A stretch of DNA of 64,000 nt. It comes from Schmidtea nova (taxonomy: Eukaryota). A program made the position numbers and the translations under genes. Within the stretch, counting starts at the first letter, position 1, and each line of letters opens with the position of its first letter. The notes under the pieces were generated by a model. That model was not told where the DNA came from. It searched no databases and saw only the letters and a program-made list of their open reading frames with translations. Where the stretch lies: assembly GCA_044892505.1 (NCBI GenBank), contig CM097884.1:36642001-36706000 (forward strand), written 5' to 3'. Of the stretch, positions 41,745-64,000 are shown one piece after another.

Positions 41745-42341
41745 ATGACCACCGATTTGATACAGAGAGAATTGGAAAAGATGTGGCGGATTCGGAGAGC
41801 CCAGGACAAGGAATTGGGTCTCCTCAAGGCACAATTGATCAAAGCAGAGGCACAGATAGCATACCTGCGCAAAAGCTGGTTTGCTCCGGCCAGAATGAAA
41901 GAGCAAATCAGTAAAACCGAGCGCGCCCAACAGACTGCGGCCGATTTCCAAATGGAATGGGAGGCTACGAAGATAGAACTCCGAAAATGTCTCCATTCCG
42001 TAACTGCCTCATATATTGAGAAGGAGCTCAGAGAGCAAATCCGTCCGGTTACGTATCAAGCTTGGACATCAGAAAAGAAGACGGTAAATTCCATTGGCAC
42101 GGATGTCGCCGATCTAATCGAAAGTCGGAATGAGACAGCTCCTGCAGCAAATTCAACCACCTCATCAGCAAATGCGCACCAGAAACGCAAGCGCATTGGG
42201 CAGAAACGGCGGAGACAGAGAAAATTATTTGCCCAGCGATTACAAAGCCAAGTAGATGGTCTACATCAGATGACCGAGGAGGCATTATTGACGGAGATTT
42301 TTCCTCCGGCGGGAGTTTTTACCGAACTAATTAAAAATTGA
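41745..42341 (+). CDS. 198-aa coiled-coil protein with a basic NLS-like patch, inside the LTR
   Basis: Heptad-like N-terminal half; KRKRIGQKRRRQRK; TAG acceptor-like site 1 nt before the ATG. Confidence 0.6.
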   Translation: MTTDLIQRELEKMWRIRRAQDKELGLLKAQLIKAEAQIAYLRKSWFAPARMKEQISKTERAQQTAADFQMEWEATKIELRKCLHSVTASYIEKELREQIRPVTYQAWTSEKKTVNSIGTDVADLIESRNETAPAANSTTSSANAHQKRKRIGQKRRRQRKLFAQRLQSQVDGLHQMTEEALLTEIFPPAGVFTELIKN

Positions 42342-42815
42342 ATAAATTGTTGTATTGGCTTAAGAATTTTATCGTTCATTTAAATTGATTTAATTAACTT
42401 TACCAATGATTAGATAAAGATAGAACAAAAGTATAAATTCATTTTACAAAATACCTAATAGAGATAAATAAATAATTAAGCGAACATTTGTTAAAATACT
42501 TCTTGCAGAATGAGAGAGGTTAAAGATAAATTTACTGAAAGATATTGCGGAACACCTAAATAGATGATTAAAGCATAAGTCCTTCTAACGGCAGCGATGA
42601 ACCCGTAAACATAAATGGGGAGTAGTACTAGCGATAGTGCTCACCTGCCCATCATTGTTTAACCACCCTGCGCATCACCAACTTGGTTATACAGGGAAAT
42701 AATCAAGGGCGCTTGAGTGTAGAAGTGCAATTTTGTGCATGATCATGGATGAGGGAATCCCTAGTCATTGTTAGAGCATTTTTCATCTAACCCCTCCATG
42801 AACCCAGCATAAATT

Positions 42816-44497: not shown

Positions 44498-44657
44498 GAG
44501 AGATTAAATTGAGGCCAAGAGAGCCATTTGAGAGATTAAATTGAGGCCAAGAGAGCCATTTGAGAGATTAAATTGAGGCCAAGAGAGCCATTTGAGAGAT
44601 TAAATTGAGGCCAATAGAGCCATGTGAGATATAAAATTGAGGCCAGAAGAGCCATAG
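44498..44657 (+). repeat. 32-bp tandem array, 4 near-perfect copies plus 1 degenerate
   Basis: Unit GAGAGATTAAATTGAGGCCAAGAGAGCCATTT. Confidence 0.92.
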
Positions 44658-45268
44658 TGAACTATAGATATATCCGGATAAATAGTAATAGAGGGAATAT
44701 AGACCCATAGTGTAATCGTCGACGAGATTTAGAGTAGTGCGCACCAGTAGTTAAGAGAATGCGAGTAAAGCTGATTATGCAACCTTAAGTAAAGCATGCA
44801 AGGAGAATAGTAAAAATTTTTGGGCTGACCGGAACAACCGGCAGAATAAGTAAAAACGATTGCTAGCAGGGAATAATGAATAGAAATGATAAAATAATGA
44901 TAAACGAGTCAGAAAGACTCAGGGAATTAGAGCGCTCGAGCGACCAATAAATTGGGAAACTGTGGGAAAAGTAATTGATTGGATAAAGTATAGATAATTA
45001 TTACGACATAAATAGATAATTGTGACCAGTCTATAGATAATTTAAATAGACTAAAAATAAAGGGGAATCTGGGAATGGGAAATAATGAAAACCCAGTAAT
45101 AAGTAATCCCGAAAGAAAGGGAATAAAAGCGCGACGATAACAATAATGTATCGTTGAGGACCTTTGTATTTTAGATATACAAATCAATCAAATCAATCAA
45201 TCAAGCAAGAAGAATCAGAAAACGATAAGAGATAGAACAGAAAAATTGAGTATACAAAAGTAATCCCC

Positions 45269-48200
45269 TTGAGAAAAGGAGCAAAGAGTGTCGTAGTAAA
45301 GCCAACGGAAAAGAAAGTCGGTAGCAACAGTAATAAAAAAGACAAAACTAGTACTACAACAAAATCAACAAAAAAGCAGAAAGCCGGCAAAGATAACCCA
45401 CAAGGGAGTAAATCGAGGAAAATAATAAGAGATAAATCGATTACCGAAAACGATAAATTGTCAATAATAAGCAACAGCTCAAGTAACAAAGAAAACCAAG
45501 CCGAACCCAAGGAGAACCAAGCAAGTGAAATAGAGAGCGACGAAACTAACAACGATAATATCGAAGAAATAGAACACGAGATAGAACAAGAAGGAGAAAT
45601 CGACGAAACTAACAACGATAATATCGAAGAAGTAGAAAACGAGGTAGAACCAGAGATAGAAATCAACGCGAGTGATAACGAAAGTATAATATCAGATAAC
45701 GAAGGAATAAGAGAAACAGAAAGCGATTCAAGCTCGAGTAAAACGGAAGACGAACATAACAACGAACTAGAAACAAGAGGAAACGAAAGTAAAATAACTC
45801 AAGACAGCGGAATTGAAATGGGTGAACCAAGAGAAGAAATAAAGGATAAATTTTCAGGAGAACCGTTCAACGGAGATGCGAGTAAATTAGAAACCTTTTT
45901 AAAAGAATTTGGCATATTCGTGGAGGTATGCAAGTGGAAAGCTGAAACAACGGTAAGCAGAATTCAGTTATATTTGAAAGATAGCGCATTGGACCTATAT
46001 TTGGAAGCGAAAAATGGTACCAATCCACCTACAAGCTGGACAGCGATAAAGGATTTTTTCCAACAAACATTTGGAATAAATAAAGTGCTGAGCGAGGCAT
46101 TCATAGAATTCTCAATGAGGAAACAAAAGATGAATGAATCTAATGCGGTATACGCGAGCGAACTGAAAAAATTAGCAAAATCGGTATTCAAGGATGGAGG
46201 TCCAATAAACGAGGAGTTAATGGCAGCTATCTTCATAGGAGGACTAAGAAGACCCGACATAAGAGCGCAAGTAGGATGTCAAGGATGCAAAACCATAGAT
46301 CAAGCGTTAGAAACAGCTAACCGATTCGAATTGCATATGATAGGAAGCGAAGGCAGAATTTATCTAGCCATGGACACAGCGCAAACCGAACCGGAAGTAA
46401 ATCTCAACAATCACATTCCAAATTCGCAACAATTAAACCGACCACCCCCTCAACGAAGGAATGAAGGAAATAAAGTGCAGAACTTTGAAAGCCAAAACAA
46501 TTACAACCCTCAAAGACAAACAAAACAATGTAAAACATGCGGGAAGTTAGGACACTGGCAGCAAGAATGCTATCAAAATTTGAATTGCGGAAAATGTGGA
46601 GTTAAAGGACACTCGGAAAGCAGATGTTCTACAATAATCTGTTTTAATTGCGGACGACCTGGTCACTATTCAAGAAATTGCGGACATAAAAGTAATCAAC
46701 GAGGAAACTGGCAGAGTAATGGGAACCGACCAAATTACGGAAATCAAGCAAATACAGTAAACCGACCAGATTATGGGAACCAACAAGTCAATAATAACAA
46801 TAATCAGAACAAAACCACCCCCAAAGAAATACATTTAATGCAAGAAGTCCAAAGATTGACGGAACTTATAAACAATACGACGAGAGGAAATCCGCAAACC
46901 AATCAACAGCAAATTAGCATGATGAGAAAAATAGAAAGCGAAAACGAACGATTGAATCGAGAAAGTCAAGCACGACACGCTCAGGAATGGGCAAGAATAC
47001 AAAGAGAGGATGAACAAAAACAGCAAGAAAGAGAACGACAACCTCTAAGAATTAACATGCTAAGAGCAACAAACCAAACAGACACTCGCGAGAAAGAAAC
47101 CACACTGGAAATGAATTCGATAAACCCGAATCCAGCCGACAACGAAAGTCGAAAAGAAATAGTACAAAAAGATGAAGAAGTAGAAAAAGAAGCAGAAAAG
47201 GGAGTGGAAACCGAGATAAACCAGGAAGAGAGAAGAAAAATTTGGAAAAAAGGAATGATGGTAATCATGCCCAACGACCATATGTTTCGATTCCAATATA
47301 ACGCAAAAGAAAAGGTGGAAATACTGTTCAATAAAGTAAACCAGATGATTCCAGGAGTGACAAAACTGCCCAGAGAAGCGTTCTTACAAATAGGAGATGC
47401 ACCAACAGTAAAATTAAAATTAACAGATACATGGGAAAACGTGGGAGTAACAGAGACAAAAAGAAATGTGATGAGAATTAAAGAAATAGAACCAGAAGAA
47501 AGTCCACCACCAATACGTCACGAAACCCGAATCCGGCGAATATTTGAAGGAAAAATGATAAGAAGACGTTTAAAAGAGATAGACGAGTTGGGAAAGAAAA
47601 TGGGAAAAGTCGAAGTAATAGAGGACAAGAGTGAACCAACACCAGAAATTGACAAAAACGAACCAGAACCAACGGAGAATATACAAGGAGAAACGAACCA
47701 AACAGCACATATTAATATGTTAAGAAATACCACCAGAGAGTTTTCCGATGAAGAAGAAGATAGTGACATCAGTAGCCTAGCAGGAGACATATTAAATGAA
47801 TCCGAAGACGAAAATAAAGAGAGAGAAGTAATAAAGACCTCAGAACCTACACAGATAAAAGTAGATGAAATCCAGAAATTACTAGATAACTCGCTAGAAG
47901 TAATATATAACGAAGAGTTCATGGACAAGAAACAATATCGGAAATTCATGAAAGCATTACTACAAATGAACTACAAAGAATGGTTACAAGACCGGGAAGT
48001 AGACATGTTGAATCGATACGTAGGGAAATTAATAGAGGAACCACTCCTCAATTACACCATCTCAATAATAATAAATACATCTACACCAAGAATCTGGATC
48101 AAAACTCCATTTACAGACGATATCTACAGATGGGTAGAGGATAGACTAGGGAGCTCATACAAAAACAAATTCATCTATTCGCAGAATAGACTCGTAAAGA

Positions 48201-49000
48201 AAAGAACGCACTTAGTGGAAACAGGTATATGGCCAGGAGAAATAACTCTGTTATCAATATGCGATGAAAAGGAAGAAGAGAACCTACAAGAAGTTGCAAG
48301 GGAGGCAAACACGTGCTTCGAAAGGAGAATAAAACCTCGGTTAGAATACGAGAAAGAACGAGTCTTACGAAAGAATCTAAATTCCCTGATAGAACAAATC
48401 ATACCACAAGTCAAAAAACATAGAAAAGAGTTAATGAGAAGCGAATACGAGAAACTGAAACGATGTATTGAGTGCATACGTGACACAAGTCACACGAGAT
48501 GGTCACAAATCTCACACGACAAATTAATCGCAAAAATGGGAAAAACAATGTTCAGACAAGGGAAAATAACAGATCTAAAAATTTCAGTAGAATTACCTAA
48601 TGAGGACACCAAAGAAATTGAAGTGGTAGCGGATTGCACCATTAAAGAATTAATAAATGTCATCAACGAGACACTAGTGCAAAGAGAACCAGAAGACGAA
48701 TGGGAAGACGACATAATCATACAATACAACGAACATGTATTATGGGATCACGATGAGAGACGATTATATAAAATCGGTATATGGGATAATCACCAAACAA
48801 TCCACGTTAGCAGAATGGACGATACACCCAGAGAAACTGCTAAAGATGAGAAAAGAGAACGGGAACGACGGAAAGAAGTTGTGCATAAATTACAACAAAT
48901 AGTAGAAATTTATCGAAATTGGCGAATTTGGCCAGAATGGGAAAATGTATTAGAAGAACTCAATCTCAACCGACGAATACGAACACCCGTAGAAAAATAA
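45269..49000 (+). CDS. gag: Polyprotein part 1: acidic N-terminus, Gag (capsid ~45840-46350, three CCHC knuckles 46528-46682), ubiquitin-like domains
   Basis: FSGEPFNGDASKLETFLKEF capsid-like start; CKTCGKLGHWQQEC, CGKCGVKGHSESRC, CFNCGRPGHYSRNC. The track start is TTG; the first in-frame ATG is at ~45818. Confidence 0.9.
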   Translation: MRKGAKSVVVKPTEKKVGSNSNKKDKTSTTTKSTKKQKAGKDNPQGSKSRKIIRDKSITENDKLSIISNSSSNKENQAEPKENQASEIESDETNNDNIEEIEHEIEQEGEIDETNNDNIEEVENEVEPEIEINASDNESIISDNEGIRETESDSSSSKTEDEHNNELETRGNESKITQDSGIEMGEPREEIKDKFSGEPFNGDASKLETFLKEFGIFVEVCKWKAETTVSRIQLYLKDSALDLYLEAKNGTNPPTSWTAIKDFFQQTFGINKVLSEAFIEFSMRKQKMNESNAVYASELKKLAKSVFKDGGPINEELMAAIFIGGLRRPDIRAQVGCQGCKTIDQALETANRFELHMIGSEGRIYLAMDTAQTEPEVNLNNHIPNSQQLNRPPPQRRNEGNKVQNFESQNNYNPQRQTKQCKTCGKLGHWQQECYQNLNCGKCGVKGHSESRCSTIICFNCGRPGHYSRNCGHKSNQRGNWQSNGNRPNYGNQANTVNRPDYGNQQVNNNNNQNKTTPKEIHLMQEVQRLTELINNTTRGNPQTNQQQISMMRKIESENERLNRESQARHAQEWARIQREDEQKQQERERQPLRINMLRATNQTDTREKETTLEMNSINPNPADNESRKEIVQKDEEVEKEAEKGVETEINQEERRKIWKKGMMVIMPNDHMFRFQYNAKEKVEILFNKVNQMIPGVTKLPREAFLQIGDAPTVKLKLTDTWENVGVTETKRNVMRIKEIEPEESPPPIRHETRIRRIFEGKMIRRRLKEIDELGKKMGKVEVIEDKSEPTPEIDKNEPEPTENIQGETNQTAHINMLRNTTREFSDEEEDSDISSLAGDILNESEDENKEREVIKTSEPTQIKVDEIQKLLDNSLEVIYNEEFMDKKQYRKFMKALLQMNYKEWLQDREVDMLNRYVGKLIEEPLLNYTISIIINTSTPRIWIKTPFTDDIYRWVEDRLGSSYKNKFIYSQNRLVKKRTHLVETGIWPGEITLLSICDEKEEENLQEVAREANTCFERRIKPRLEYEKERVLRKNLNSLIEQIIPQVKKHRKELMRSEYEKLKRCIECIRDTSHTRWSQISHDKLIAKMGKTMFRQGKITDLKISVELPNEDTKEIEVVADCTIKELINVINETLVQREPEDEWEDDIIIQYNEHVLWDHDERRLYKIGIWDNHQTIHVSRMDDTPRETAKDEKRERERRKEVVHKLQQIVEIYRNWRIWPEWENVLEELNLNRRIRTPVEK

Positions 49001-49105
49001 TGGAACGAGAAAGGAAAATGTTGGGAACCAAAAGAAGGGGAATATGAAGAAGAATATAAAAGAGGAATTGAAGATGACTGCGAACCAGAGATAGGAAGGG
49101 TTTGC

Positions 49106-52100
49106 ATGGTGACAAGGAAAGCTACGCCAATAGACCTAGATGGACCAGAAACAGCGGCCATGTGGTTAGAAAGGGAAAAGCAAAAAACGGAAGAATTCGT
49201 CGAAATATTAAAAACTAATGCGCACGGTAAGAGAAAATTAATAAAGGGTCTCGCAGATTTTTTCGTGGTAAATGGGGAAGATATAACATGCTTGCGTAAA
49301 GTAGCAAAAGCAATCGCGGAATATAAAAGAGTTAACGAGTGGTGTCCGGAACAACTAGACCACGTAATTAGGAAATGGAGAAATCAAGAATTCTCGCAGG
49401 AAATTCCACAGAAAGTACATTTAAGAATAATATACCCAAACAAGGATAAGGAAGAGTTGTGGGTAGGAATAGCAGAAAAAATTCGAGATATTAAAAAGAA
49501 ATTGAGATACGAACCACCATTCCATTTACAACACCAAGGACGATCATTAGATAACAGTTTGGAAATCGGAATAACGCCAGCACAATTAGACCTCATGAAT
49601 ACCTTGACAGTAGAAGCAATAGCGGGTCAACCATTGAAACGTAAAGAAGAAAACCATAAACCACACGGAAGTATAAGTACGCCAAGCCCGATGAAATCAG
49701 TACTAACACCAGGGACAAGTTCAAGACGATCTGAGACAACACCCAGAGGAACCAGAGAAAGGACTCCACCACAACCATACGACGTGGACGAAATTTTAAC
49801 GGATAGCGACGATATGATAGAAGAGTTAACCGAATTAACAAGGGAAAAGGACGATAACATTTTCGAAAGAATACAAGAACTACCTACGACAATACAAATA
49901 ACCAACACCGGAGAAGCAGAAGTCGAAGAAGAAATAATAATAGAAGAAGTAAACGATTTGACAGAAGACGAAACGAGAGGAGCGAATGTCGAAAATGTAC
50001 AATTAACACAAGAAATGGAAAGATGGTTAGAAGAAAGAGCTAACGAACCAAGAGATGTCACCGAAGAAACCGGACGAGCAACAAGGTTTGTGGAAACAGG
50101 TACAGGAATTGATAAACGACCTAGAGGTAGACCTAAGACAGACCCAGCAACTGTAGTTGTAAGAAATAAAGACGAAAAGAGACAAGATCAATGGGAATTA
50201 TGTTTAAGGAAATTAAATAAAATTGCGGAGATGAAAGAAAAAGAGACAACACCAATATGTCAAGGGGAGGAATGGATATCGAAAACGATAATGGAGATAT
50301 TGGCAATAATTGATCCGGAATTAAGAAAATACTGGCGTATAACTGAGATAAGCGAAAAGGCGAAGTCGCTACACAGCGCAATCGCACCCATCTTACCGGA
50401 ATTCATAAAAGAAAAGACGAAGTCAAACCATTTAGACTGGCAAGGAACCACTACGTTAATAAAGAAACTGACAGAAGGAGCGGAAACAGATAACAAATAC
50501 GTAATAGCCATTGCATACACGATCTACAATCTGTTGACACTGAGTAGAGGTCTACCAAAACCCACTGCATTAGAGAGACATATAAAAAATACCGCAAAAA
50601 TTATAGCGAGAGAAATAGAACCATACGTCATTAACAAAGGAGGATGGGAAACATTTATAAAAACTAACCAGAAGAAAACGCAAGCGAAGAATATGAAAAA
50701 GAAATTCGAAAAAATATTGGAAGAGTTAGCAAAAGAACAAGCAGGAACGGGAAACGCGAAGTCATCAATGAATTTGAGTTCTATAATAATGATGATGTTG
50801 ATATGGATGATTAGCACCGATAGCGCAACAGCATTCGAAGTGTTTGATTGCGACCAAATGAAGTTAGGAGAAAAGTATTCATTGAGAGGTACGGAGCAAT
50901 GCAAAGATGCGACTCCAGTAGAGTTGCAAAAGATTAAAAAGGAACAATGGTACCACGTGTATCAAGAAGCAGAACTCATAAAGACAATGGTGAATGAATG
51001 TAAAGTGCAGAAGACGAGATTCGCATTCTACTGCGGGAGAGGACATTATTCAGCAATTGTCATGCCAGGAACGGAAAGAGAACCAATCGTGTTACAAGGA
51101 GAAGACTGCGAAGCACTGTTTAAACATGGAGAAGTAACAACAAGAGATAAAATCAAGATAAGAGGAAAGCCAGGAATGATGATGCAACAGACGTACTATG
51201 TAGCAGGACGGATTACGGGAGGAGAAGGATATTGTCAAGGAGAAACCTACCCGATATTCGGAGTACCCGCAACCAACTTAGTGGTGATGGATACGTATAT
51301 AGTCGAACTAAAAAGCTACGAAGCATTCTTCGAACCAACAACGGGAGAAATGAAAACGTTATCCATGTGTAAAATCGACAGGAGCATGTGTCAAACGGGA
51401 ATGTCAACATTAGTGTACAAACCAAAGGTAAACGAATGTCAGTTACAACTGCTACAAGGAGCAAAGTTCGACGAAATCCAAGGAAAAACGTTCCAGGAAG
51501 AAGACGAGGACGACAAAGATAGAGCAAAGCATCTCAAGGAAGCTTTAGAGAATAAAAGACAACTGAAACCGGATCATAGAGAAAAACGGATAGAGATGAG
51601 AGCCACACCAACAGTGTTGATAACCACAAATCAAGATGTGGGAATGAGATTCATAAAAGGGAAAGCAACCCTTAAGTGTAGTACAACGGTATACGAAACG
51701 AATTACCCAGGAATATATGTGTCAAAACAAGAAGTGCCAAATGCGAAACCCAAAATCGACACAATGGATATCAAACTACACTTGTATGTGAATAATAAAA
51801 TGGATTTCCTATTCCATAGAGGACAAGCCTCATTACAAAAAGTGTACTACGATTTGATAAACAATGATTGTATACTGAATCGAGAAATATTAAAGACAAA
51901 GTTGGCCGTAGCGATTACGAATCCAGATAGCGCGATGCCATTATTACCACTGAGAGAAGGACATTTCGGAAGAGTGGTCGGAGAAGCAATGTACGTATAC
52001 ATTTGCGAAAAAACACTCGCGCCGCTAGCAGCAACAACACAGTTGAAACCTGGAACCTGTACAAATGAGTTAGAAATCGATTACAAAGGAAAAGTACGAT

Positions 52101-55100
52101 ACGTTCAACCGGTGACGAGAATCATCAATCCACCAGGGTTTGAACCAAATCCATTCAACTGTAGTAATGCGTATGGACCGCTTTATCAAAAACCAGATGG
52201 TAAATGGGTTATGTTCCCAGGAAGATCCGAAGTGATAGCACCAAGAGAATTCGAGCTAATGCAGTTGTCAAAGGATAGGCAATTCAGCGACGTAGATGTC
52301 TCAAACAACGGAATATATAGTCCAAAGGATTTAGAAGCAGCAAGGCAGAATATATTATTCCCGGCAAGAAGAGAAGCATTACTGTCAAATATCGTAACGA
52401 TAACGGGAGGAACGGATTATCGAGAAGGACCGAATTATGAACTGTTGTTGTCACCAGCACATTTCAAGAAAGCCACCGAAAATATGATGAAAGCAATGTG
52501 GGGAAGATTTCTGATATTCGGACAAATGATGGCTGGAATACTGGGGGTTATATTAATAATACAAATCGTCAGAGTGATAATAACGCAAATGCTCGCGTGT
52601 TTTGACATCTACAAGAGAGAAAAGAAAGTGAATTGGAAAATGGTAGTAGGGTTTTTACCATTCCTCGCGAAGACGATGGTGTTGCACGGACACTCAAAGG
52701 ACATACATCGAATAAAGAGATTGTTGAAGATACTCGCAAAAATGAAGGGAACAGATGAAGAAGTAGGACGAAAATTTAAAAAGATAATGGATGACGAACA
52801 AGCAAGACAACAGCTCAAGAGAGAAAGAAAAGGTTTATGGGAGAGGATGAAAGGATATAAAACCCAAAATGATTCGAGTGACGACGACGATGACGATGAC
52901 GACTATAAGGGAGGACAAGTGTATAAGAACCAAGCACCCCAATACATCGAAAAGAATCCAGCCGACGCATGGAAATGTTACGCACCCCCACCAACCATGT
53001 ATCAAGAACCACTACAAGGAGGAAAAAATAGCACGATGCAAATGATGCCAATGACAAATGTATATCCCATGATACCAGAAGATTATAAAATGAGAAGATG
53101 TAGAAGCGTAGATCCACAAGGAGATACACACACGATCGCAGTAATGTCATCAAACACAGGTCCAGTATTAACCACGACAATAGAGATTAACGGAAGGGAA
53201 ATCGAAGCAATGATCGACACGGGAGCAAACATTTCCGCCATCGACATCAAATGGATACCACAAGAGCAAAGACGAGAAATAGAAAGGACAAACGTCCATG
53301 TAATTGCATGTAGCAAAGAAGTTGTAGAAGTAGCAGGAAGATGGTGGGTAAAAATACGCCATTTAAACACGGAAATCGATACGTACGTAGCAGTTATACC
53401 AGCATTAAGCGTACCTTGCATCATCGGAACAGATTTGATGCCAGCACTATTTAAAGAGATTGTAATCGACCTCGGAACAATGAGACTAAAGGATCGCACA
53501 GGACAAATATGCGCAATAGAAGCCAAAGTGACAAGTTCAAAGCAAATGATAATACCCGCAAGAAAGGAGAAAATATGTTACGTAAAAATAGATCCGACAA
53601 TCCAAGGGGATATGATTTTCGAACCAAGTAAGAGATTCGAGAAAAGAAAAGCGTTGCCAATGGCAAGAGGACTAGTTAACATAAACGACGATGGAGAAAT
53701 CCCAATAAACGTAGTAAACTTCGATGAAGAGGACAAAATAATATACGAAAACGAAAGATTAGGTAAATTAACCCCAATGATGGATATCGAACTACCAATA
53801 GAAGGGGCAGAGAAAGATAAAGAACCAACCTGGAATATTGATAGTGAATTATTAAATGAGGATCAAAGGAAGCAGCTAGAAAAACTCCTGATAGAGTATA
53901 AGGATATATTTGCAGCATCCGATTTAGATCTAGGAACATGTGAGGTCACACTACATACAATACCATTAACAGATGAAACACCAATTGCATTAAGGCCGTA
54001 CAAATTAGCGGAAGCACAGAAAGCAGTAGCAGAAGCAGAAGTGAAGAAAATGTTGGATGCAGAAGTAATCGAACCAAGTTGTTCACCCTGGCAATTCCCA
54101 GTGGTAATGGTAAAGAAAAAAGACGGAACACAGAGATTCTGCATCGACTATCGAAGATTGAATACAGTGACAAAAAGGGATACTTACCCATTACCAGACA
54201 TTAATGAAATGCTATTAACATTACAAGGAGCAGCATATTTTACGTCGTTAGATCTGAAAAGCGGATATTGGCAAATAAAAATGAAGGAAGAAGATAAGGA
54301 GAAAACTGCCTTTACCATCGGGAGAGATTTATATCAATTTCGGAAAATGCCATTTGGATTAACGAACGCACCAGCATCATTTCAGAGATGCATGAATTTC
54401 GTCACCCACGGAATAAAGCAGTGCATGGTCTACATCGACGACTTATTGATTTACTCTAGTACATTCGAACAACACATACAGGATATTCGAGATGTATTCG
54501 TTAGACTTAGACAATGGAAGTTAAAACTCAAGCCATCAAAATGCGATTGGGCAAAAGAAAAGGTTACATTTTTAGGACATATAGTGTCAGCAAAAGGAAA
54601 AGAACCGGATCCTAGAAACATCGACAAGGTAAAAGAATGTCCAGCACCAAAAACAATAACCCAAATACAAGAATTTCTCGGACTATGTGGATATTATAGA
54701 AAGTTTATAAAAGATTACGCCGGAATAGCAAAACCTATACAGGAGCTGGTAAAGAAAGATGTATCATTCATATGGGGAGACGAACAGCAAACAGCATTCG
54801 AGACATTAAGAGATAAACTGATAACCGCACCCATATTGGTACACCCAGACTTCAAGAAGCCATTCCTACTTGCAACAGATGCAAGCGGATATGCAGCAGG
54901 AGCCGTATTAGGACAATACGACGACGAAGGAAAAGAACGGGTAATCGGATATTATAGCCGGACATTCAAAAAGCATGAGAAAAATTACTCAGTAACAGAA
55001 CGGGAAGCATTAGCAATTATATTAGCTATTAAACACTTTAAATATTTACTATGGGGTCACATCATCTGCATAACAACAGATCACCAACCGCTTGTATGGT

Positions 55101-56908
55101 TAGGACAGCACAAGGAAACATCCAGTAGATTAATGCGATGGGCAATGCAGTTACAGGAGTACTCACCAGACATAAAATTTAAATCAGGACGAGCGAATGC
55201 GAATGCAGATTGTATGTCAAGACTGACATTTCCAGAACTAACCGATCCTGATGTACAACGAATTTGTGTATTAATAGCGGAGGATTTAGATTTTAGTGAG
55301 TTAAAGAAAGATCAACAAGAAGACAAAGAATTAGGACAAATCATAGAGTTCCTAACATCTCGAAATATGGAAGTATTCAAGGATAATAAGGAACTAAAGG
55401 AACATATAGGAAAATATCAACATCGCTACATAATAAATAAAGGATGGTTGTTAATACAAGACGGAGAAAAGAGATTGATGTGTTTACCGGAAAACAGAAG
55501 GAAAGAGATAATGATCCAGTACCATGATGGGAAATTAGGAGGTCATATGTCCGAGAAGAAGACAATAAATCGTATGAGACAAAAATATTATTGGCGAACA
55601 ATGGAGGAAGATATAAAAGAATGGATTAAAAATTGTCTAACTTGCGCAACCAGAAAGGATAGTGGGAAGAAATGGAAGAACCCACTACAACCAATGCCAA
55701 TACCAGCAGAGCCAATGACAACTATAGCAATGGACGTAATAGGACCATTACCAGAAAGTTTAAACGGAAATATTTATATATTGGTAATAACGGATTATCT
55801 GACGAAATTCCCGGAAGCATTTGCCATGCAAGACCAAAAAGCAAAAACCGTAGCAAAAATTCTAGTGGAAGAAATATGTTGCAGATACGGAACTCCAAAA
55901 CAAATACTCACAGACCAAGGAACTAATTTTATGAGTGAATTATTGAACGAGGTGACAAACTACTTCAGAATAGCAAAATTGAGAACTTCACCATATCACC
56001 CGCAAACGAATAGACAAACGGAGCGATTCAATGGTACATTGATCAGAATGTTATCAAATTACGTCAGCAGACATCAAACTGATTGGGACGAATACATAAA
56101 ATTATGTTTAATGGCATACCGAATGTCGATACATGCAGCAACAAAACTAAGCCCATTTCAACTTATGTATGGAAGAGAATGCAACATGCCCATAGATTTA
56201 GAGTATCAGCCACCATTATCGCAATATATGGAAGATGACGACTACGTAACCAAATTCAAAGAAAGAATGCAGGAAATATGGAAAACGGCAGAACTCAACA
56301 TTAAATTTTATCAGGAAAGTTATAAGGACTTACACGACCAAAAGAAAAATGTTAAAGCGAACGATCTAAAACCAGGAGATTGGGTGATAATAGAAACTCC
56401 CGAAATAATACCAGGAACTGTTAAGAAACTCCAAAGACCTGGAAGAGGACCTTATGAAATTATATACAAAAAAGACAATAATGTCAAAGTTAAGCTAGTA
56501 AATCGACCATTAATACGACCCATATATGTAAACACTTGCAGATGTAAGAAAGTACCTAAAACGATAACTACAACACCAGAGAATCGAATAATAACCAGAT
56601 CACAAACAGCCAGGATAAATATGCTCAGAGCTAATGCAACTGAAGACGACAAAGCAGAAATAAGGCAAAAAGAAATCAGAAATAAAGAAATTATATTGAA
56701 GGCGAGAGAGATAATGGGAAGATGGCATGTTAGAGACGAAGTAGGCATATCAAGGGATATTAGACATATAATTAGTCGTTACGCACAAGGATTACCAACC
56801 GAACCAATTATTTCTGAATTATTGGAAAAAATCCCTGAAATACTCTTATTGAAAGATGTAGGAGGACAACCAGCCTTACATAATGCGATAGAGTGTAAAA
56901 ACATTTAA
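49106..56908 (+). CDS. pol: Polyprotein part 2: Ubl, Bcl-2-like domain, signal peptide, chuvirus-like glycoprotein, aspartic protease, dUTPase-like spacer, RT, RNase H, integrase (GPY/F), first ankyrin repeat
   Basis: MIDTGA (~53216); YIDD (54431); ATDAS...EREALA RNase H; HHCC, MDVIGP, TDQG, ERFNGTL and RGPYEI integrase motifs. Same frame as parts 1 and 3. Confidence 0.95.
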   Translation: MVTRKATPIDLDGPETAAMWLEREKQKTEEFVEILKTNAHGKRKLIKGLADFFVVNGEDITCLRKVAKAIAEYKRVNEWCPEQLDHVIRKWRNQEFSQEIPQKVHLRIIYPNKDKEELWVGIAEKIRDIKKKLRYEPPFHLQHQGRSLDNSLEIGITPAQLDLMNTLTVEAIAGQPLKRKEENHKPHGSISTPSPMKSVLTPGTSSRRSETTPRGTRERTPPQPYDVDEILTDSDDMIEELTELTREKDDNIFERIQELPTTIQITNTGEAEVEEEIIIEEVNDLTEDETRGANVENVQLTQEMERWLEERANEPRDVTEETGRATRFVETGTGIDKRPRGRPKTDPATVVVRNKDEKRQDQWELCLRKLNKIAEMKEKETTPICQGEEWISKTIMEILAIIDPELRKYWRITEISEKAKSLHSAIAPILPEFIKEKTKSNHLDWQGTTTLIKKLTEGAETDNKYVIAIAYTIYNLLTLSRGLPKPTALERHIKNTAKIIAREIEPYVINKGGWETFIKTNQKKTQAKNMKKKFEKILEELAKEQAGTGNAKSSMNLSSIIMMMLIWMISTDSATAFEVFDCDQMKLGEKYSLRGTEQCKDATPVELQKIKKEQWYHVYQEAELIKTMVNECKVQKTRFAFYCGRGHYSAIVMPGTEREPIVLQGEDCEALFKHGEVTTRDKIKIRGKPGMMMQQTYYVAGRITGGEGYCQGETYPIFGVPATNLVVMDTYIVELKSYEAFFEPTTGEMKTLSMCKIDRSMCQTGMSTLVYKPKVNECQLQLLQGAKFDEIQGKTFQEEDEDDKDRAKHLKEALENKRQLKPDHREKRIEMRATPTVLITTNQDVGMRFIKGKATLKCSTTVYETNYPGIYVSKQEVPNAKPKIDTMDIKLHLYVNNKMDFLFHRGQASLQKVYYDLINNDCILNREILKTKLAVAITNPDSAMPLLPLREGHFGRVVGEAMYVYICEKTLAPLAATTQLKPGTCTNELEIDYKGKVRYVQPVTRIINPPGFEPNPFNCSNAYGPLYQKPDGKWVMFPGRSEVIAPREFELMQLSKDRQFSDVDVSNNGIYSPKDLEAARQNILFPARREALLSNIVTITGGTDYREGPNYELLLSPAHFKKATENMMKAMWGRFLIFGQMMAGILGVILIIQIVRVIITQMLACFDIYKREKKVNWKMVVGFLPFLAKTMVLHGHSKDIHRIKRLLKILAKMKGTDEEVGRKFKKIMDDEQARQQLKRERKGLWERMKGYKTQNDSSDDDDDDDDYKGGQVYKNQAPQYIEKNPADAWKCYAPPPTMYQEPLQGGKNSTMQMMPMTNVYPMIPEDYKMRRCRSVDPQGDTHTIAVMSSNTGPVLTTTIEINGREIEAMIDTGANISAIDIKWIPQEQRREIERTNVHVIACSKEVVEVAGRWWVKIRHLNTEIDTYVAVIPALSVPCIIGTDLMPALFKEIVIDLGTMRLKDRTGQICAIEAKVTSSKQMIIPARKEKICYVKIDPTIQGDMIFEPSKRFEKRKALPMARGLVNINDDGEIPINVVNFDEEDKIIYENERLGKLTPMMDIELPIEGAEKDKEPTWNIDSELLNEDQRKQLEKLLIEYKDIFAASDLDLGTCEVTLHTIPLTDETPIALRPYKLAEAQKAVAEAEVKKMLDAEVIEPSCSPWQFPVVMVKKKDGTQRFCIDYRRLNTVTKRDTYPLPDINEMLLTLQGAAYFTSLDLKSGYWQIKMKEEDKEKTAFTIGRDLYQFRKMPFGLTNAPASFQRCMNFVTHGIKQCMVYIDDLLIYSSTFEQHIQDIRDVFVRLRQWKLKLKPSKCDWAKEKVTFLGHIVSAKGKEPDPRNIDKVKECPAPKTITQIQEFLGLCGYYRKFIKDYAGIAKPIQELVKKDVSFIWGDEQQTAFETLRDKLITAPILVHPDFKKPFLLATDASGYAAGAVLGQYDDEGKERVIGYYSRTFKKHEKNYSVTEREALAIILAIKHFKYLLWGHIICITTDHQPLVWLGQHKETSSRLMRWAMQLQEYSPDIKFKSGRANANADCMSRLTFPELTDPDVQRICVLIAEDLDFSELKKDQQEDKELGQIIEFLTSRNMEVFKDNKELKEHIGKYQHRYIINKGWLLIQDGEKRLMCLPENRRKEIMIQYHDGKLGGHMSEKKTINRMRQKYYWRTMEEDIKEWIKNCLTCATRKDSGKKWKNPLQPMPIPAEPMTTIAMDVIGPLPESLNGNIYILVITDYLTKFPEAFAMQDQKAKTVAKILVEEICCRYGTPKQILTDQGTNFMSELLNEVTNYFRIAKLRTSPYHPQTNRQTERFNGTLIRMLSNYVSRHQTDWDEYIKLCLMAYRMSIHAATKLSPFQLMYGRECNMPIDLEYQPPLSQYMEDDDYVTKFKERMQEIWKTAELNIKFYQESYKDLHDQKKNVKANDLKPGDWVIIETPEIIPGTVKKLQRPGRGPYEIIYKKDNNVKVKLVNRPLIRPIYVNTCRCKKVPKTITTTPENRIITRSQTARINMLRANATEDDKAEIRQKEIRNKEIILKAREIMGRWHVRDEVGISRDIRHIISRYAQGLPTEPIISELLEKIPEILLLKDVGGQPALHNAIECKNI
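50768..52700 (+). CDS. env: Envelope glycoprotein region, Jingchuvirales/chuvirus G-like (putative class III fusogen)
   Basis: Signal SSIIMMMLIWMISTDSATA|FEVFDC; ECKVQKTRFAFYCG; YVNNKMDF...YYDLINNDC; GEAMYVYIC; NGIYSPKDLEAARQNILFP; TM at 52508-52600. The cysteine spacing matches my recollection of chuvirus G. Confidence 0.78.
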
Positions 56909-56953
56909 AGAGCAAAAGAATTCCTAAAAATCGCAAAAGAAACAAACCAAAAC

Positions 56954-59900
56954 TTGGACATAGGGAATCGGGAACAAGAAACTCCATTAATGACAGCCGC
57001 AATCCACCAAGCAGATAAAGAAATGATAGATCTATTGATAAAAGCTCATTTCAGTTGGACAGAACGAGATAGAGAGGACAAAACAGTGCTAAATCACGTA
57101 ATATGGAGTTCTCACCAACCAATGCTGAAATACATAATAGCTAACTCCACTTGGGAGATAGACGAACTAGTTAAAGGAGACATTATCAAAGAGGCAATCA
57201 AAATTGGTAAATGCAACACGATCCGTAAGTTAATCAAATGGAAACGACCAGAAGATGATACATGGGTCTTAGACATAAACGAAGTATACAGCGAAGGACA
57301 AAACGCACTGTTAAGATACCTTTTGAAATTTACTTGTGATCAGAAGACATTACTAACCTTATTAGACAGAGGAAACATAAACATCACAAAGAATGAAGAA
57401 GAATACAAATTCGATAAAGAGAAGGAAGCCTTATTCAATAAGATTAGGAAATGGTGTGCGAAACCACTTGATAAACTAATAACATACAAAGACATAAACA
57501 ATTTTAACGAGAAATACCAGACGATAGTAAGCGAATATGAGGAATTAGTAAAAATCTTAAACCATCCCGAAAAATGCAAACAGGTTTTAGAGAAAAAAGA
57601 AAGAGAAAGTAACAAGAAACTCACACCACTCTTCAAAGCAGAAGCACCATACCAAGCTAGACTAGATGCGATACAAGAAAAAGCAAAAGAATTGTTACCG
57701 GAATTCGAGAATAGTAAACATGCACTGGAAATACTCGGCGCATTAGTTGAAAAAGTACACGCATACGCAAAAGGAACTTACAACGGAAACGACATAGTAA
57801 TAATAAAAAAGGAGATGCCAGTAACATTCCTATTACCAAAAGACGGAATAATGCCCATACATAGAGCTTTACGAAATGGCAAAGATAGGAAAGTAATGGA
57901 AATTGCAAGAGTAATGCTAAATTGCGGAAGCAATATGAATATGATAGACGAGAAAGGAGATACACTTATGGTATTTGCAGCAAGGGCCAAAACGAAAACA
58001 AAGGTATTAGAAGAACTATACAAAGCAGGTGCAGGACTTACAGGAAAGACAGATAAAGATAATTCGATATTGGATGTAGCATTATTAACACACAATTGGG
58101 AAATGGTCAATTTCATTAAAACCGTCCCAAATCAGGAAGAAATAGATCACCTAACTGAGACGGTCAAGAAACCCAGTGTACTAGCAATGATGAACAACGT
58201 CGAATTAACAGAATCAATACTTACGTGGATAAATCCTAATACTAACGAACCAGCATTCAGGATTAATAAGTTTACAGAACATAACCAAAACTGGTGTATA
58301 AGAAGTGCCTTAATAACGTATAAATGGCCAGAGATATTGAAGATGTTTATGGAAAGAAAGGATCTAAGAATCACAACCAGCCCGAAAGAAGAAAAATACA
58401 CAGGCAAATGGAAAGAATTGATGAAGACATACATCAACAATTGGATCAAGGCCAAAAAGGAAATCTTAGAATATAAATCCACAAACAAAGTAATACCGGA
58501 GCAGGTAGAAACACAAGAATTTGAGGCAAGTAATCTAACGACATTAGCATATGCAAAATTGATAGAAGAAATCAATGTCGAGGACGACATTTTCGACGAG
58601 CCAGGGGGAGATGACAACACAGATAGTGACGACGGTAACAACTCAGAAAATTCAAGCGATCACGAACCACCCGATAAAGAGGAAAACGAGAGAAAAGACA
58701 AGAAACGAGACAAGGAAGGAAAGAAAGGTGAAGATGAAAAACAAAGAGATGAAGAGAGAGAACAAGGAACAAACGACCAAGGAGACACCCAAAGAACAGG
58801 TTATAAATCAACCATAAAACCATTCTTCAAACCAGAATTACTATTACTAACAATGATTATAACGTTAATTAATCCAAGTCAGGGAATGACATGTGAAGAA
58901 AGGGCAATAATACAAATAAAAAACGCAAAAGGAATCGAACGAGTATGTTGGTCGAAAAAGGACAAAACCACGGAACAAAATAGCCCGATGGATTGCAGAA
59001 TCTCAAAACACGAGCAAGAGATCATAGAGATCAATGACTTAGATCTAGATACCTGGTACAAAATATGCACCGTTAGAAAACAAAAGCATCCAAGATCACA
59101 CAACACAATCGCATGTGCAAAATACCAAACACCTAAAGCAGCCATGACAATACAACAGTCACCCAAAGGAGATTACATCCTCGGAAAATGTGGAAGAACA
59201 GAGACACAGGGAACAGAAAACAAAAAACCCCAGGTAATAGATAAGCAAACAACACCAACTATACGAATTACAATAAAGAGGCCCGAAGCAAGAGTTGCCA
59301 CAAACGAAACCGAAAGAGTGTCTTACCAAATGGAAGTATTATGCTTAGCACTCATACTAATAATGATAAAACGATTAGAGGAAGGAATAGAAATTGAAAC
59401 TATGACAATAACAGAAGTAGAAGATACACAGAATACTAACATAAAATGTTGGGCAAGGAATAACGAGGAAATCGGCGTAAATGAAATAAGGAAAAGTCGA
59501 AAACCAACAACGAATAAAGTAATTAAAGTATCCAAAGTAAAAGCGGATAAGACGTACAAACTATGCCTACTAGAAAAAGAGACAAACAAGAAAGGTACCA
59601 CAAAATGTAAAACATTCCAACCTGGAGAGGTAATAAAGTTCAGAAGGAGAACGAGGAAGAGAAATAAACAAATCAAGCAGAAACTAAACATAACATTAGA
59701 AATAAAAGAAATAGAACCAAATGTGAAAGGAGTATGCTGGAGGAAGTACGAAAAAGAAACGAATGAAAGAAAGACACCACAATGTCGAACAAGCACAGGA
59801 GCAACGACGATACAAATAAAAGGTTTAGAAAGTAAACAAACTTACGAAATATGTTTGGTAAAGAAAAATGATCAGATAACGATTAACGACCTAGAATGCG

Positions 59901-62287
59901 GAATATACACCACTTCATCCGGAACAAGAACTAAAACGATAACACGAAAAAATAAAAGAAGACAACGAAACAAAGGGAAACCGAAGTACACCACTACCTT
60001 TAAAAACAATAAACAACCGATAAGCCAAGAAGTTACGACAAAATCCGAGAAAAAGACATCAGCAACTCTGACATTATGGAAAATAGAGAATAAAACATTG
60101 GAGATATGTTGGATAATAGTCCAGAAATATATAAGAAGACAATCAAGAGAGTGCAGAAAAACAAATAAAGAAATCAAGATCGAAAAACTACAATTTAATA
60201 GCGAGTATGAAGTATGTGCCATAGAAAAAACGGACGCACTAGGAAACCAACAAGAAAGATGCGTAACCTACTATACACCAGTAAACGCAACATCAAAAGG
60301 AATAACAAGGAAACTCGAATTCAGGGAACTAAGCCAAACGAATGAACAAATGGACGCAGAAAAAACAATAACCGACCCTCAAGCAAAATGGACACCTGAA
60401 GAAGTTATCAAAGAAGTCAAAAGAAAGCAAGAGGAACGAGAACAATTAATGAGAAAACTAAAGGGACAATACGGAATAATGTTCAACCAAAGCGAACCTA
60501 TACCAACAGACGAGAATAAAGAAATTAAAGAACTAATCGGCTTAGGAATACTAACAGCAACCATACCAGTAATAATCGCGTTATCAGCTATATGGATACG
60601 CAAGATAAGCCCAAGAAAATCAACAACCCAATGGCTAAATATAGATAATACAAGCCATGGAGTAGAAATACTAGAAGGAAAAGCACGAGAAGAACCAAAT
60701 AAGAAAGAAGCGAAAAGCGGAAAACTAGGAATAAACAACAAAGACAAGGAAATAAAAGAGATTAAAGGCAAAGAGAAAAAATATGAAAGGCGGACCAGAA
60801 GCCTACCGCAGAGTTCAAAATGGTTGGGTCTAACAATAATATTGACATTAATCAATAGGGAAGAAGCAATAAACCCACAGACAAGGATAAAAGTAATAAA
60901 TGTCCAGGAAGTCGAGAAAATATGTTGGTATAGAGAAGATGAACCAATTGGAGAAAATAACCCACTAAAATGCATAATCAGAAAATCCGACCAGGATATC
61001 GTACGAATAGAAGAAATGGATGGAGGAACCATGCATCGGATATGCATAATAGAAAAGGAAAAGAAGTCGGGGCTACCTAAGACAGTCGTATGCCAGAAAT
61101 ATGAAACGCCTAGACTTGAATGGTATAGAGTAAAACCAACAAAGAAAGAAATCAAAAACACAATAGATCAACCAGCAACTCAGATAAGAAACACAACGGA
61201 TAAACCAGGAGAAGGGGAGAGAAGCATAAATAACACGAGAGAAGGAGCATCACCCCAACAAGATGTCGTATGCATAGCGTTAATAATAGCAATGTCCAAA
61301 CGTATCAACAAAGGAATAACAATAGAACAAATGGCCATGACAATAAGGAGAAAAGGCCGGAGTAGCAACAAAATATGCTGGGGATGGTACAACGAACAAA
61401 AAGAATACCAAGTTCAGACAAGCGACGAATCACGAACAAACAAGGAAACCGAAATACAAGAAATACAAATGGACGGAGAAGGAAGTATATGTATATGGGA
61501 GAAAGGAATCCAAGAAGATCAACCCGGAATAGAAAAGTGCAAGACATTCCAAAAAGGAGAAATTCTGAAATTCGATGAAAAAGAATTAACCAAAACAGAA
61601 AGAACTCTGACATTAACAGGACTTGATCAGACAGTGAAAGGAATATGTTGGACAAAACATAACCCAGAAGGAGAAGAAGGTAACCTAACCCACTGTAAAG
61701 AAACAGGGAATAAGGAAAATGTCGAATTAAAGAAAATGGAAGTAAATAGGACATACGCGATATGTACCTTCACCAGAAAAGGTTCAGAAAAACCAGAATG
61801 CGGATTATATCAGATCTCAGAGAAACTACAACAACAGATCGAACCAGGAAACATGGAAAACCGAACAAAAGAAAATAACGTCAAACAACTACTAAACCGC
61901 CATTGGTCTACCCAAGAAGTAATGAACAAAGTCAAGAGTCAAATACAGAAAGAGAAGAAGCCAGAGGCTCAAACCCAAAATGAGATAAAAGCGAATCAGA
62001 AGAAAATCAAAGCAACAAACCGTGGAAAAACAGTAATAGGACTAATCAGTATAGGAATATTAATAGCATATGGGATAATGACGACAAGCATGATAATATA
62101 TTGGAGATACAGAAAGAAAAACAAAGCGACAGCCATACAATGGCCAGATATAAAAATTATGAAGCAAAGAATAGAAATACCAGAAGAGATACAGCAAGAA
62201 TTCCAAAGAAGAACGAAAGGTAAAGAATTCTGGAAACAAATAGAAGATGAAGAACGATACGAGGAAAAGACGATAATGATGGTATAG
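56954..62287 (+). CDS. Polyprotein part 3: ankyrin repeats, then two related membrane modules with FN3-like domains
   Basis: ETPLMTAA, KTVLNHVI, PIHRAL, DTLMVFAA and SILDVAL ankyrin motifs; repeated CW...C...IxxLxxxxxYxIC...C..YxT FN3-like units; six hydrophobic segments. Confidence 0.85.
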   Translation: MDIGNREQETPLMTAAIHQADKEMIDLLIKAHFSWTERDREDKTVLNHVIWSSHQPMLKYIIANSTWEIDELVKGDIIKEAIKIGKCNTIRKLIKWKRPEDDTWVLDINEVYSEGQNALLRYLLKFTCDQKTLLTLLDRGNINITKNEEEYKFDKEKEALFNKIRKWCAKPLDKLITYKDINNFNEKYQTIVSEYEELVKILNHPEKCKQVLEKKERESNKKLTPLFKAEAPYQARLDAIQEKAKELLPEFENSKHALEILGALVEKVHAYAKGTYNGNDIVIIKKEMPVTFLLPKDGIMPIHRALRNGKDRKVMEIARVMLNCGSNMNMIDEKGDTLMVFAARAKTKTKVLEELYKAGAGLTGKTDKDNSILDVALLTHNWEMVNFIKTVPNQEEIDHLTETVKKPSVLAMMNNVELTESILTWINPNTNEPAFRINKFTEHNQNWCIRSALITYKWPEILKMFMERKDLRITTSPKEEKYTGKWKELMKTYINNWIKAKKEILEYKSTNKVIPEQVETQEFEASNLTTLAYAKLIEEINVEDDIFDEPGGDDNTDSDDGNNSENSSDHEPPDKEENERKDKKRDKEGKKGEDEKQRDEEREQGTNDQGDTQRTGYKSTIKPFFKPELLLLTMIITLINPSQGMTCEERAIIQIKNAKGIERVCWSKKDKTTEQNSPMDCRISKHEQEIIEINDLDLDTWYKICTVRKQKHPRSHNTIACAKYQTPKAAMTIQQSPKGDYILGKCGRTETQGTENKKPQVIDKQTTPTIRITIKRPEARVATNETERVSYQMEVLCLALILIMIKRLEEGIEIETMTITEVEDTQNTNIKCWARNNEEIGVNEIRKSRKPTTNKVIKVSKVKADKTYKLCLLEKETNKKGTTKCKTFQPGEVIKFRRRTRKRNKQIKQKLNITLEIKEIEPNVKGVCWRKYEKETNERKTPQCRTSTGATTIQIKGLESKQTYEICLVKKNDQITINDLECGIYTTSSGTRTKTITRKNKRRQRNKGKPKYTTTFKNNKQPISQEVTTKSEKKTSATLTLWKIENKTLEICWIIVQKYIRRQSRECRKTNKEIKIEKLQFNSEYEVCAIEKTDALGNQQERCVTYYTPVNATSKGITRKLEFRELSQTNEQMDAEKTITDPQAKWTPEEVIKEVKRKQEEREQLMRKLKGQYGIMFNQSEPIPTDENKEIKELIGLGILTATIPVIIALSAIWIRKISPRKSTTQWLNIDNTSHGVEILEGKAREEPNKKEAKSGKLGINNKDKEIKEIKGKEKKYERRTRSLPQSSKWLGLTIILTLINREEAINPQTRIKVINVQEVEKICWYREDEPIGENNPLKCIIRKSDQDIVRIEEMDGGTMHRICIIEKEKKSGLPKTVVCQKYETPRLEWYRVKPTKKEIKNTIDQPATQIRNTTDKPGEGERSINNTREGASPQQDVVCIALIIAMSKRINKGITIEQMAMTIRRKGRSSNKICWGWYNEQKEYQVQTSDESRTNKETEIQEIQMDGEGSICIWEKGIQEDQPGIEKCKTFQKGEILKFDEKELTKTERTLTLTGLDQTVKGICWTKHNPEGEEGNLTHCKETGNKENVELKKMEVNRTYAICTFTRKGSEKPECGLYQISEKLQQQIEPGNMENRTKENNVKQLLNRHWSTQEVMNKVKSQIQKEKKPEAQTQNEIKANQKKIKATNRGKTVIGLISIGILIAYGIMTTSMIIYWRYRKKNKATAIQWPDIKIMKQRIEIPEEIQQEFQRRTKGKEFWKQIEDEERYEEKTIMMV

Positions 62288-62769: not shown

Positions 62770-62861
62770 ATAAATAAAGCGGAAAATTGTAAATATGTAA
62801 AAATAAAAACAAGAAAAACCAAAAATAAATGACAAGTCGAATGTATATATTATTGTAGAGA

Positions 62862-64000
62862 ATGGACAGAGAAGAACGAATAATCGAGATTTTGAGATTA
62901 GAAAACAGAAAATGGAGCAAGAGGCTCACATGCGGAAAATGTAACAATTTATTACGAGAACCCAGACAAACGATATGTGGATGTAGAATATGTACAAAAT
63001 GTATACAAGAATTAGATACCACCGGAATAACAACATGCCCAGAATGTAAAGAAGGAGGAATAGTGTTGGACGAAACCAGAACGGACAAAGCAACCCAAAG
63101 AGAAATTATGAGCACCACAACGGAGTGCGTAAATACACCTTGTACATGGCAAGGACAAATAAGTAATCTAGAAAACCATATGGAAAAGTGCGAGGAGAAA
63201 AGAACCGAATGCGAGAAGTGCCAACAGACAATAATTCTAAAGAAGAGAGAACAACACAAGGAAGAATGTAAAGAAGAAGAAATCGCATGCGAGTATTGTG
63301 AAGCCCGAGAAACAAGGAGAAAAATCGAAGAGGAACACTTGAATATAACAGAGGAGAAAGTATGCAGACAATATGTAAGTAAATGTCCAAACAATTGCGA
63401 AATAACAGAAGAAGTAAAGTTACATGAACATTGGAAAGTATGTACCGAAAGACCAAGAGAATGTCCATATAACAAACAGGGATGCAAAGAAAAGCGGACG
63501 CGGCAATCAATGAAACAACACCTAGAAGAAGCAGCACTAACACATGTGGAAATGACAAACGAAACGACAAAAGAAACGGAACAGACAATCCAGAAATTAG
63601 AAAAAGAAGTAGAATCACATAAGATAATGATGAGTTTACTACTAGAAACAAGAGAGCAGTTTGAACTAACTCGCGAAAGAATGGAAAAGAAAATAATAGC
63701 CATAGAAGAATTAGGAAAAGGAATGAAAATACAATATAATCAATTAATACGAGAAATTGACGAAAGAAGGGACTTACCAATCGCACCTTACCTATGGAAA
63801 GTAACAGATTTCAGAGACAAACTAGCAGAAGCCAGAAATATGACGAAAACAGCAGTAATAAGCCCACCATTTTATTTATGGAAAAACGGGGTTAAAATAA
63901 GATTGAAAGTATACCCAAATGGAGACGGAAGAGGACAAGGAACACACGTGTCAATATTTTTCTCGCTATGTAAAGGAGAATACGATGACCTAATAGAATG
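62862..64000 (+). CDS. TRAF: Intronless TRAF-family protein (RING, TRAF zinc fingers, coiled coil, MATH/TRAF-C); 3' end beyond the window and absent from the ORF track
   Basis: My translation: CGKCNNLLREPRQTICGCRICTKC...CPEC; CVNTPCTWQGQISNLENHMEKC; CPYNKQGC...HLEE; YLWKVTDF...SPPFY...LKVYPNGDGRGQGTHVSIFFSLCKGEYDDLIEW. Confidence 0.93.
   Translation, partial: MDREERIIEILRLENRKWSKRLTCGKCNNLLREPRQTICGCRICTKCIQELDTTGITTCPECKEGGIVLDETRTDKATQREIMSTTTECVNTPCTWQGQISNLENHMEKCEEKRTECEKCQQTIILKKREQHKEECKEEEIACEYCEARETRRKIEEEHLNITEEKVCRQYVSKCPNNCEITEEVKLHEHWKVCTERPRECPYNKQGCKEKRTRQSMKQHLEEAALTHVEMTNETTKETEQTIQKLEKEVESHKIMMSLLLETREQFELTRERMEKKIIAIEELGKGMKIQYNQLIREIDERRDLPIAPYLWKVTDFRDKLAEARNMTKTAVISPPFYLWKNGVKIRLKVYPNGDGRGQGTHVSIFFSLCKGEYDDLIE

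Follow-up and report, generated by a model that had tools for sequence, protein, structure and literature searches.

The 64,000-nucleotide window of the Schmidtea nova genome analysed here (contig CM097884.1 of GCA_044892505.1, positions 36,642,001 to 36,706,000) contains a giant gypsy-type retroelement whose polyprotein ends in two tandem membrane modules, composed of four and three fibronectin type III (FN3)-like domains, respectively. We tentatively propose that these modules assist the element's own fusogen in attachment or adhesion; module 2 was likely captured from a sister family. The modules are the C-terminal end of a single polyprotein of ~5,680 residues, because 33 of the 150 scored copies of the window family, which were taken from 1,915 candidates and share 89-100% identity, lie in open frames of at least 5,600 residues. 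Of 14 close copies, 13 have both modules in a single open frame. The polyprotein frame of the window copy is split by two stops into 1,254, 2,635, and 1,792 residues. The features of the module region are as follows, in window positions.

58838..58885, + strand: signal-like segment 1 (LLLLTMIITLI)
58898..59134, + strand: FN3-like unit 1 (six strands, four Cys)
59336..59386, + strand: middle hydrophobic helix H2 (VLCLALILIMI; 11 uncharged residues, with C and KR...GI invariant; probably lumenal)
59390..59620, + strand: FN3-like unit 2 (three Cys; no confident fold in the model)
59684..59914, + strand: FN3-like unit 3 (strands B-G; the first strand is the predicted homodimer interface)
60059..60283, + strand: FN3-like unit 4 (restricted to module-1-type modules)
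60395..60478, + strand: predicted stalk helix of module 1 (structure model)
60533..60598, + strand: membrane anchor 1 (22 uncharged residues, then basic)
60599..60820, + strand: probable cytosolic loop (remnant of the tail start, then junction to module 2)
60821..60868, + strand: signal-like segment 2 (WLGLTIILTLI)
60875..61111, + strand: FN3-like unit 5 (orthologue of unit 1)
61265..61315, + strand: middle hydrophobic helix H4 (VVCIALIIAMS; homologue of H2)
61319..61555, + strand: FN3-like unit 6 (three Cys)
61595..61816, + strand: FN3-like unit 7 (homologue of unit 3)
62030..62104, + strand: membrane anchor 2 (25 uncharged residues, then basic)
62105..62287, + strand: cytosolic tail, whose last four residues are hydrophobic and end in V

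A CW unit occurs four times in module 1 and three times in module 2; across these seven units, C, W, C, and C are invariant. The units are homologous to each other, as 18 of the 21 pairs score above every one of 300 shuffles. The pattern CW...C...C matches six of the seven units; 2,000 shuffles gave a mean of 0.0035 matches and a maximum of one, and two upstream frames gave none. An initial sequence-only reading of this DNA had described a CW..C..YxIC..C unit in each module. Its unit recurs as the seven repeats, with two departures: the second Cys is absent in the two units directly after the middle hydrophobic segments, and the Y of YxIC is not retained in units 5 and 6. The modules are collinear, with unit 1 corresponding to unit 5, H2 to H4, unit 2 to unit 6, and unit 3 to unit 7, while unit 4 is extra.

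An FN3-like fold of the units, already proposed in the sequence-only reading together with an AlphaFold and Foldseek check, is supported by the profile search, the unit 3 model, and the fold matches, all of which point to FN3. In the profile search with the units, 30 of the 34 matched proteins carry fn3. The AlphaFold model of unit 3 has a predicted local distance difference test (pLDDT) score of 84 and shows a two-sheet sandwich with the FN3 strand order, with which the module model agrees. FN3 domains account for 48 of the top 50 fold matches of this model. Foldseek agrees, and the ESM Atlas adds a fourth, weak line in the same direction. The Pfam fn3 (PF00041) cut-off of 25 bits was not reached, the best score being 12.7 bits with one of the seven units matching. 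The best viral fold match has an E value of only 0.026, and no host donor for the modules was found at the sequence level.

Both models are six-stranded: the first starts from strand B, and in the second the place of strand A has a pLDDT below 50. In units 1 and 5, this place is occupied by the signal segment. The predicted homodimer pairs via the open edge left by strand A, using the first modelled strand. The models thus predict an FN3 fold that lacks strand A, is closed by two disulfides, and may self-pair by its open edge. Animal FN3 arrays such as those of fibronectin, LAR, Dscam, NCAM, Tie2, and gp130 have a beta-sandwich that superposes across strands B-G, and the same layout of signal, ectodomain, anchor, and tail. 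The units differ from them in sharing 6-20% identity, in models without strand A, in having two internal Cys pairs, and in a Trp located in strand C, not in strand B.

Each module fits a type I layout, consisting of a signal segment, one anchor of ~20 residues, and basic residues behind it, and the modules are predicted to be type I membrane glycoproteins; the membrane-segment calls rest on hydropathy and charge. All six hydrophobic segments named in the sequence-only reading lie where it placed them, with basic residues behind each anchor. It had also called the topology ambiguous given the shortness of the middle segments, which are indeed 11 residues long; this ambiguity is partly settled, since the middle segment is probably no span. 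Signal cleavage favours small residues at -3 and -1. Signal 1 has such residues and is compatible with cleavage. Signal 2 has Glu at -3, and it may stay uncleaved, tethering module 2 to module 1 by a 74-residue cytosolic loop. None of the hydrophobic segments has a conserved Met before it, which makes production of the modules from the polyprotein probable. Three runs of unrecorded kind found no GT-AG joint, which is uninformative on expression.

The middle helix is central to the topology. A CW follows each of the four upstream hydrophobic segments by 34-37 residues and these segments are mutually similar, hence H2 most likely originated from duplication of a signal-plus-unit block. H2 has exactly 11 uncharged residues in all eight representative rows, and the anchors have 17-25. 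The residues behind H2 are the most conserved of the module, with a column identity of 0.65, and those behind the first signal the least, with 0.24. The Cys of H2 and the CW Cys of unit 2, whose usual partner is lost, are both invariant in 22 of 22 rows. Sequons flank H2 on both sides in all eight rows; total sequon counts exceed those of shuffles in just one of eight. We consider it quite probable that H2 is a lumenal or membrane-dipping helix, and probably a duplicated signal that is left uncleaved and remains in the lumen. It is probably not a span, because one span would place units with conserved Cys pairs in the cytosol.

Two observations weigh against a lumenal H2: it is the most hydrophobic 11-mer of the frame (hydropathy 3.55) and is followed by KR, and no structure model packs it. 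The former would suit a split or multi-pass topology, in which the middle segment spans the membrane, fully or marginally, or serves as a back-up signal, and unit 1 lies opposite units 2-4 in some chains. Such a topology also draws on the resemblance of the middle segment to the signals with the same spacing to CW, and on a 19-residue hydropathy of up to 2.08 in one family. We nevertheless regard it as unlikely. A single span would leave unit 1 or units 2-4 on the cytosolic side, although paired Cys and sequons persist in both; conservation behind the middle segment far exceeds that behind the true signal; the matching cleavage position has an acidic residue or Asn at -3; and a Met before the middle segment is not conserved.

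The ectodomains are under purifying selection, as the ratio of nonsynonymous to synonymous substitution rates (dN/dS) is 0.18-0.47 in all nine pairs compared. Three sister families, retrieved via env relatives, have one module each, with four units in L032/L037 (which has an open frame of 5,140 residues) and L033/L038, and three units in L034/L045. The core of module 1 is 72% and 56% identical to those of the two four-unit families. Module 2 shares 60% core identity with the three-unit family, and the two window modules share 33% with each other. A tree of nine rows sets module 1 and module 2 apart with full support, and a common clade is rejected with a p value of 4e-122 in the approximately unbiased (AU) test. 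Integrase, ankyrins, and TRAF group the window family with the four-unit families, and the final tail matches these families at 37 and 36 of 48 positions and the three-unit family at 12 of 48. In older copies, the beginning of the final tail is visible behind anchor 1. Given these identities, the split in the tree, the placement of integrase, ankyrins, and TRAF, and the two tail observations, module 2 was most likely inserted into the tail of module 1 by recombination from a sister family rather than by local duplication.

Five more distant elements, with an integrase identity of 41-53%, also have a signal, an ectodomain, and one anchor behind integrase. Two are from the Schmidtea nova genome and three from four metagenome loci, of which the fourth is too short. 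The signal lies 75-95 residues past integrase, and the ectodomain has 230-340 residues. Two of these ectodomains look like FN3 pairs, one of them as a lead only; comparison did not demonstrate homology of the distant ectodomains to the CW units. The membrane-protein slot behind integrase is hence occupied in nine of nine lineages examined. The last residue of the frame is V or I at 29 of 29 loci from the close families (the window copy being counted twice), and three of the five distant elements finish in T-x-V. Such endings would fit the PDZ-binding or endoplasmic-reticulum-export type, T-x-V being class I PDZ-type. In addition, the metagenome gag-env-pol elements L028:2-10279 and L029:97-11205 have ~500 extra residues between env and the second protease-like match, and their tails end in T-x-V.

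The sequence-only reading had suggested a second envelope system beside the fusogen. This stands as a description of the architecture, which is conserved, under purifying selection, and found at the same place in nine lineages. As for function, we favour attachment on these grounds: a membrane protein fills the slot behind integrase in all these lineages, the ectodomain turns over while the fusogen stays, the module 1 ectodomains are strongly basic, and gB-type fusogens elsewhere work with separate binding proteins. The charge of the module 1 ectodomain is +37 to +40 in three families and resides mostly in two linkers; env has a value of +4, and module 2 one of +6 to +10. Two points make the argument soft: the lineages were picked through env, and the A-rich strand inflates Lys.

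In the proposed mechanism, the fusogen anchor would return the chain to the cytosol for pol and the ankyrins, and each signal-like segment would then restart translocation. The 11-residue middle helix would go through into the lumen, and each anchor would stop transfer with the basic tail inside. This would yield one anchored FN3 array or two, with a tail that binds a scaffold; the terminal V may direct the protein to such a scaffold or to the surface. On the particle or the producer cell, the FN3 arrays would bind matrix, glycans, or a neighbouring cell, and thereby bring the fusogen to the target membrane; the second module would add a second binding specificity. A broader proposal, which we hold to be rather doubtful, is that flatworm gag-env-pol elements have a herpesvirus-like two-part entry. 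A conserved gB-type fusogen would then work with an exchangeable attachment glycoprotein behind integrase, made of strand-A-less, disulfide-locked FN3 domains self-associating by an open edge, and recombination would swap or stack these glycoproteins to change tropism.

As the main competing reading, the modules might instead be surface cargo that modulates the host, as mimics or decoys of the cytokine-receptor or adhesion-receptor type that engage a host ligand or receptor in the carrier cell, alongside the TRAF, ankyrin, RING, and Bcl-2-like products and with no role in entry. Their nearest folds are those of cell receptors and matrix proteins, a TRAF gene lies directly behind the polyprotein, such a role would suit the element's other cargo, the cytosolic tail is conserved down to its terminal V or I, and Burro1 cargo has been reported to protect stem cells against apoptosis (as cited in PMC13465017). 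We consider this possible but doubtful, as no host donor was found and the modules are part of the structural polyprotein instead of being among the separate accessory genes. Moreover, the distant elements retain position and architecture with a replaced ectodomain sequence, as expected of a binding protein in turnover, which a decoy could match too. By analogy with viral exclusion proteins, the modules could also block the entry of related elements into expressing cells, by receptor interference or fusogen inhibition. The surface architecture and the lineage-specific ectodomains would fit, and capturing the module of a second family would broaden exclusion; the coexistence of hundreds of copies from several families in one genome makes this quite improbable. 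That the modules are passengers with no present function is barely credible. The polyprotein of the window copy is interrupted upstream, but the dN/dS values between families already largely refute neutrality, close copies keep the modules in one open frame, and the Cys are invariant across families.

Attachment by the modules would have a parallel in herpesvirus gB, which operates with separate receptor-binding glycoproteins. A class III-type fusogen paired with a distinct beta-sandwich protein for attachment would share out the work in the same way, by analogy and without homology. The element itself matches a Burro-like giant gypsy, an assignment made from described features. Burro/GYPSM1 is described in PMC6431247 as ~30 kb long, with long LTRs (long terminal repeats), TRAF and RING cargo, and one huge polyprotein with gag, a BCL2-like motif, env between gag and pol, and ankyrins. 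Length, LTRs, the polyprotein of gag, protease (PR), reverse transcriptase (RT), RNase H, and integrase (IN), env position, and ankyrin/TRAF/RING cargo are common to both. The Burro-like ORF1 (open reading frame 1) reported there has 5,140 residues, as does the frame of sister family L032/L037, while the window family differs in its ~5,680-residue frame, its two modules, and TRAF as a separate downstream gene. The main text of PMC6431247 has no match for fibronectin or FN3, and its section on Burro names no membrane protein behind integrase. GAG-ENV-POL errantiviruses with a herpes simplex virus (HSV)/gB-type env occur in Platyhelminthes, Nematoda, and Bryozoa (PMC13524379) and share the gene order and the fusogen class PF24664 with the element; the main text of PMC13524379 does not mention fibronectin, and a second glycoprotein was not found there. 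Element type, env position, and the ankyrin/TRAF/Bcl-2-like cargo are thus already known from these two sources.

Other systems are less close. The planarian secretory cell nidovirus has a polyprotein with FN2 domains and ankyrin and a proposed role in shedding or transmission (PMC6211748). It likewise pairs host-like extracellular modules with ankyrins in a flatworm virus polyprotein; its FN2 is an unrelated 40-residue fold, however, and the virus is unrelated. The sORF2 of MDG1-group retrotransposons is a non-env membrane protein for cell-to-cell passage (10.1101/2025.03.14.642691), but it is small, fusogen-like, and replaces env, whereas the modules are large folded ectodomains beside env. 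In PMC9094657, an FN3 topology is given only for domain III of a fusogen, and PMC8532177 and PMC13465017 treat Burro expression and function rather than FN3 domains. The literature searched contained no FN3 modules or second glycoprotein in Burro-like elements; Grohme 2018 and Lee 2026, which lay outside the search, could already mention a transmembrane region.

The whole element is 29.8 kb long, from 39641 to window-equivalent 69432, with a 4-bp target duplication at its ends and LTRs of ~3.2 kb that are 99.87% identical. Its large features are as follows.

39641..42809, + strand: 5' LTR (TG...CA, 3,169 bp), from LTR identity, ends, and flanks
45236..62287, + strand: polyprotein frame with gag/CCHC, Bcl-2-like motif, chuvirus/gB-type fusogen, PR, RT, RNase H, IN, ankyrins, and two FN3 modules
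50780..52600, + strand: Env with signal, Monjiviricetes_fusion ectodomain, and anchor (PF24664, E=2e-70; hydropathy)
outside the window, ending at window-equivalent 69432: 3' LTR, from LTR comparison

Env lies between the Bcl-2-like motif and the protease. This motif is weak: the best match to Bcl-xL has an E value of 8e-4 across 26 positions, and Pfam Bcl-2 appears in three of five rows (best 0.011), the window's own row being without a match. The Pfam scan of frames found ankyrin, TRAF/MATH, and RING as cargo, with the RING gene upstream and the TRAF gene downstream, and no BIR domain was reported in the scanned frames of the element. The TRAF-like gene (window 62859-64000 and L016:862-2238) is directly 3' of the polyprotein, encodes a complete 458-residue protein with RING, zinc fingers, and MATH, and is 46-90% identical to its sister-family counterparts. 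Just past the window, a separate 189-residue ORF of the same element (L016:3489-4058) has a signal-like start, a helical-looking ectodomain, an anchor, and a basic tail, and is a third non-env membrane protein without a Pfam match at E<0.01. An accessory ORF 5' of gag (window 43137-43598) has a C-terminal C3HC4 RING of the inhibitor-of-apoptosis (IAP) type. The LTR contains two internal ORFs of ~160 and ~200 residues (window 41076-41555 and 41733-42341), hence present twice per element, without a Pfam match. Behind the LTR is a primer-binding-site-like sequence (window 42812-42832), which we take to resemble a tRNA-Pro site, and the leader before gag (window 44070-44660) has tandem repeats of two units, ~30 bp and ~29 bp long. 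Outside the element, just 5' of the 5' LTR, is an AT-rich frame of 324 residues (window 38330-39304) without a Pfam match. Copies of these elements that are nested, inverted, or carry internal deletions occur at L042:6236-7237, L035:7945-10000, and L043, showing a second TRAF reversed, env from another copy, and gag fused straight to unit 3. In a shorter Burro-like family (L020, ORF from 9472, continuing in L021), a 487-residue DEDDh-exonuclease-like gene lies behind the polyprotein (RNase_T E=0.0017).

A single envelope protein is what LTR retroelements are usually said to have, and here a second, conserved, predicted surface glycoprotein has most likely been exchanged between families. The modules annotate the one fifth of the Burro-type polyprotein that was still unassigned and offer a predicted, unusual six-stranded FN3 variant. 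Target-cell choice is termed elusive for most such elements in PMC13524379. Attachment by the modules, if true, would show how gB-type elements select their target cells, and would provide a concrete handle in an animal group amenable to RNA interference. If the modules only modulate the host, they would still complement Burro's known anti-apoptotic cargo with an arm at the surface.
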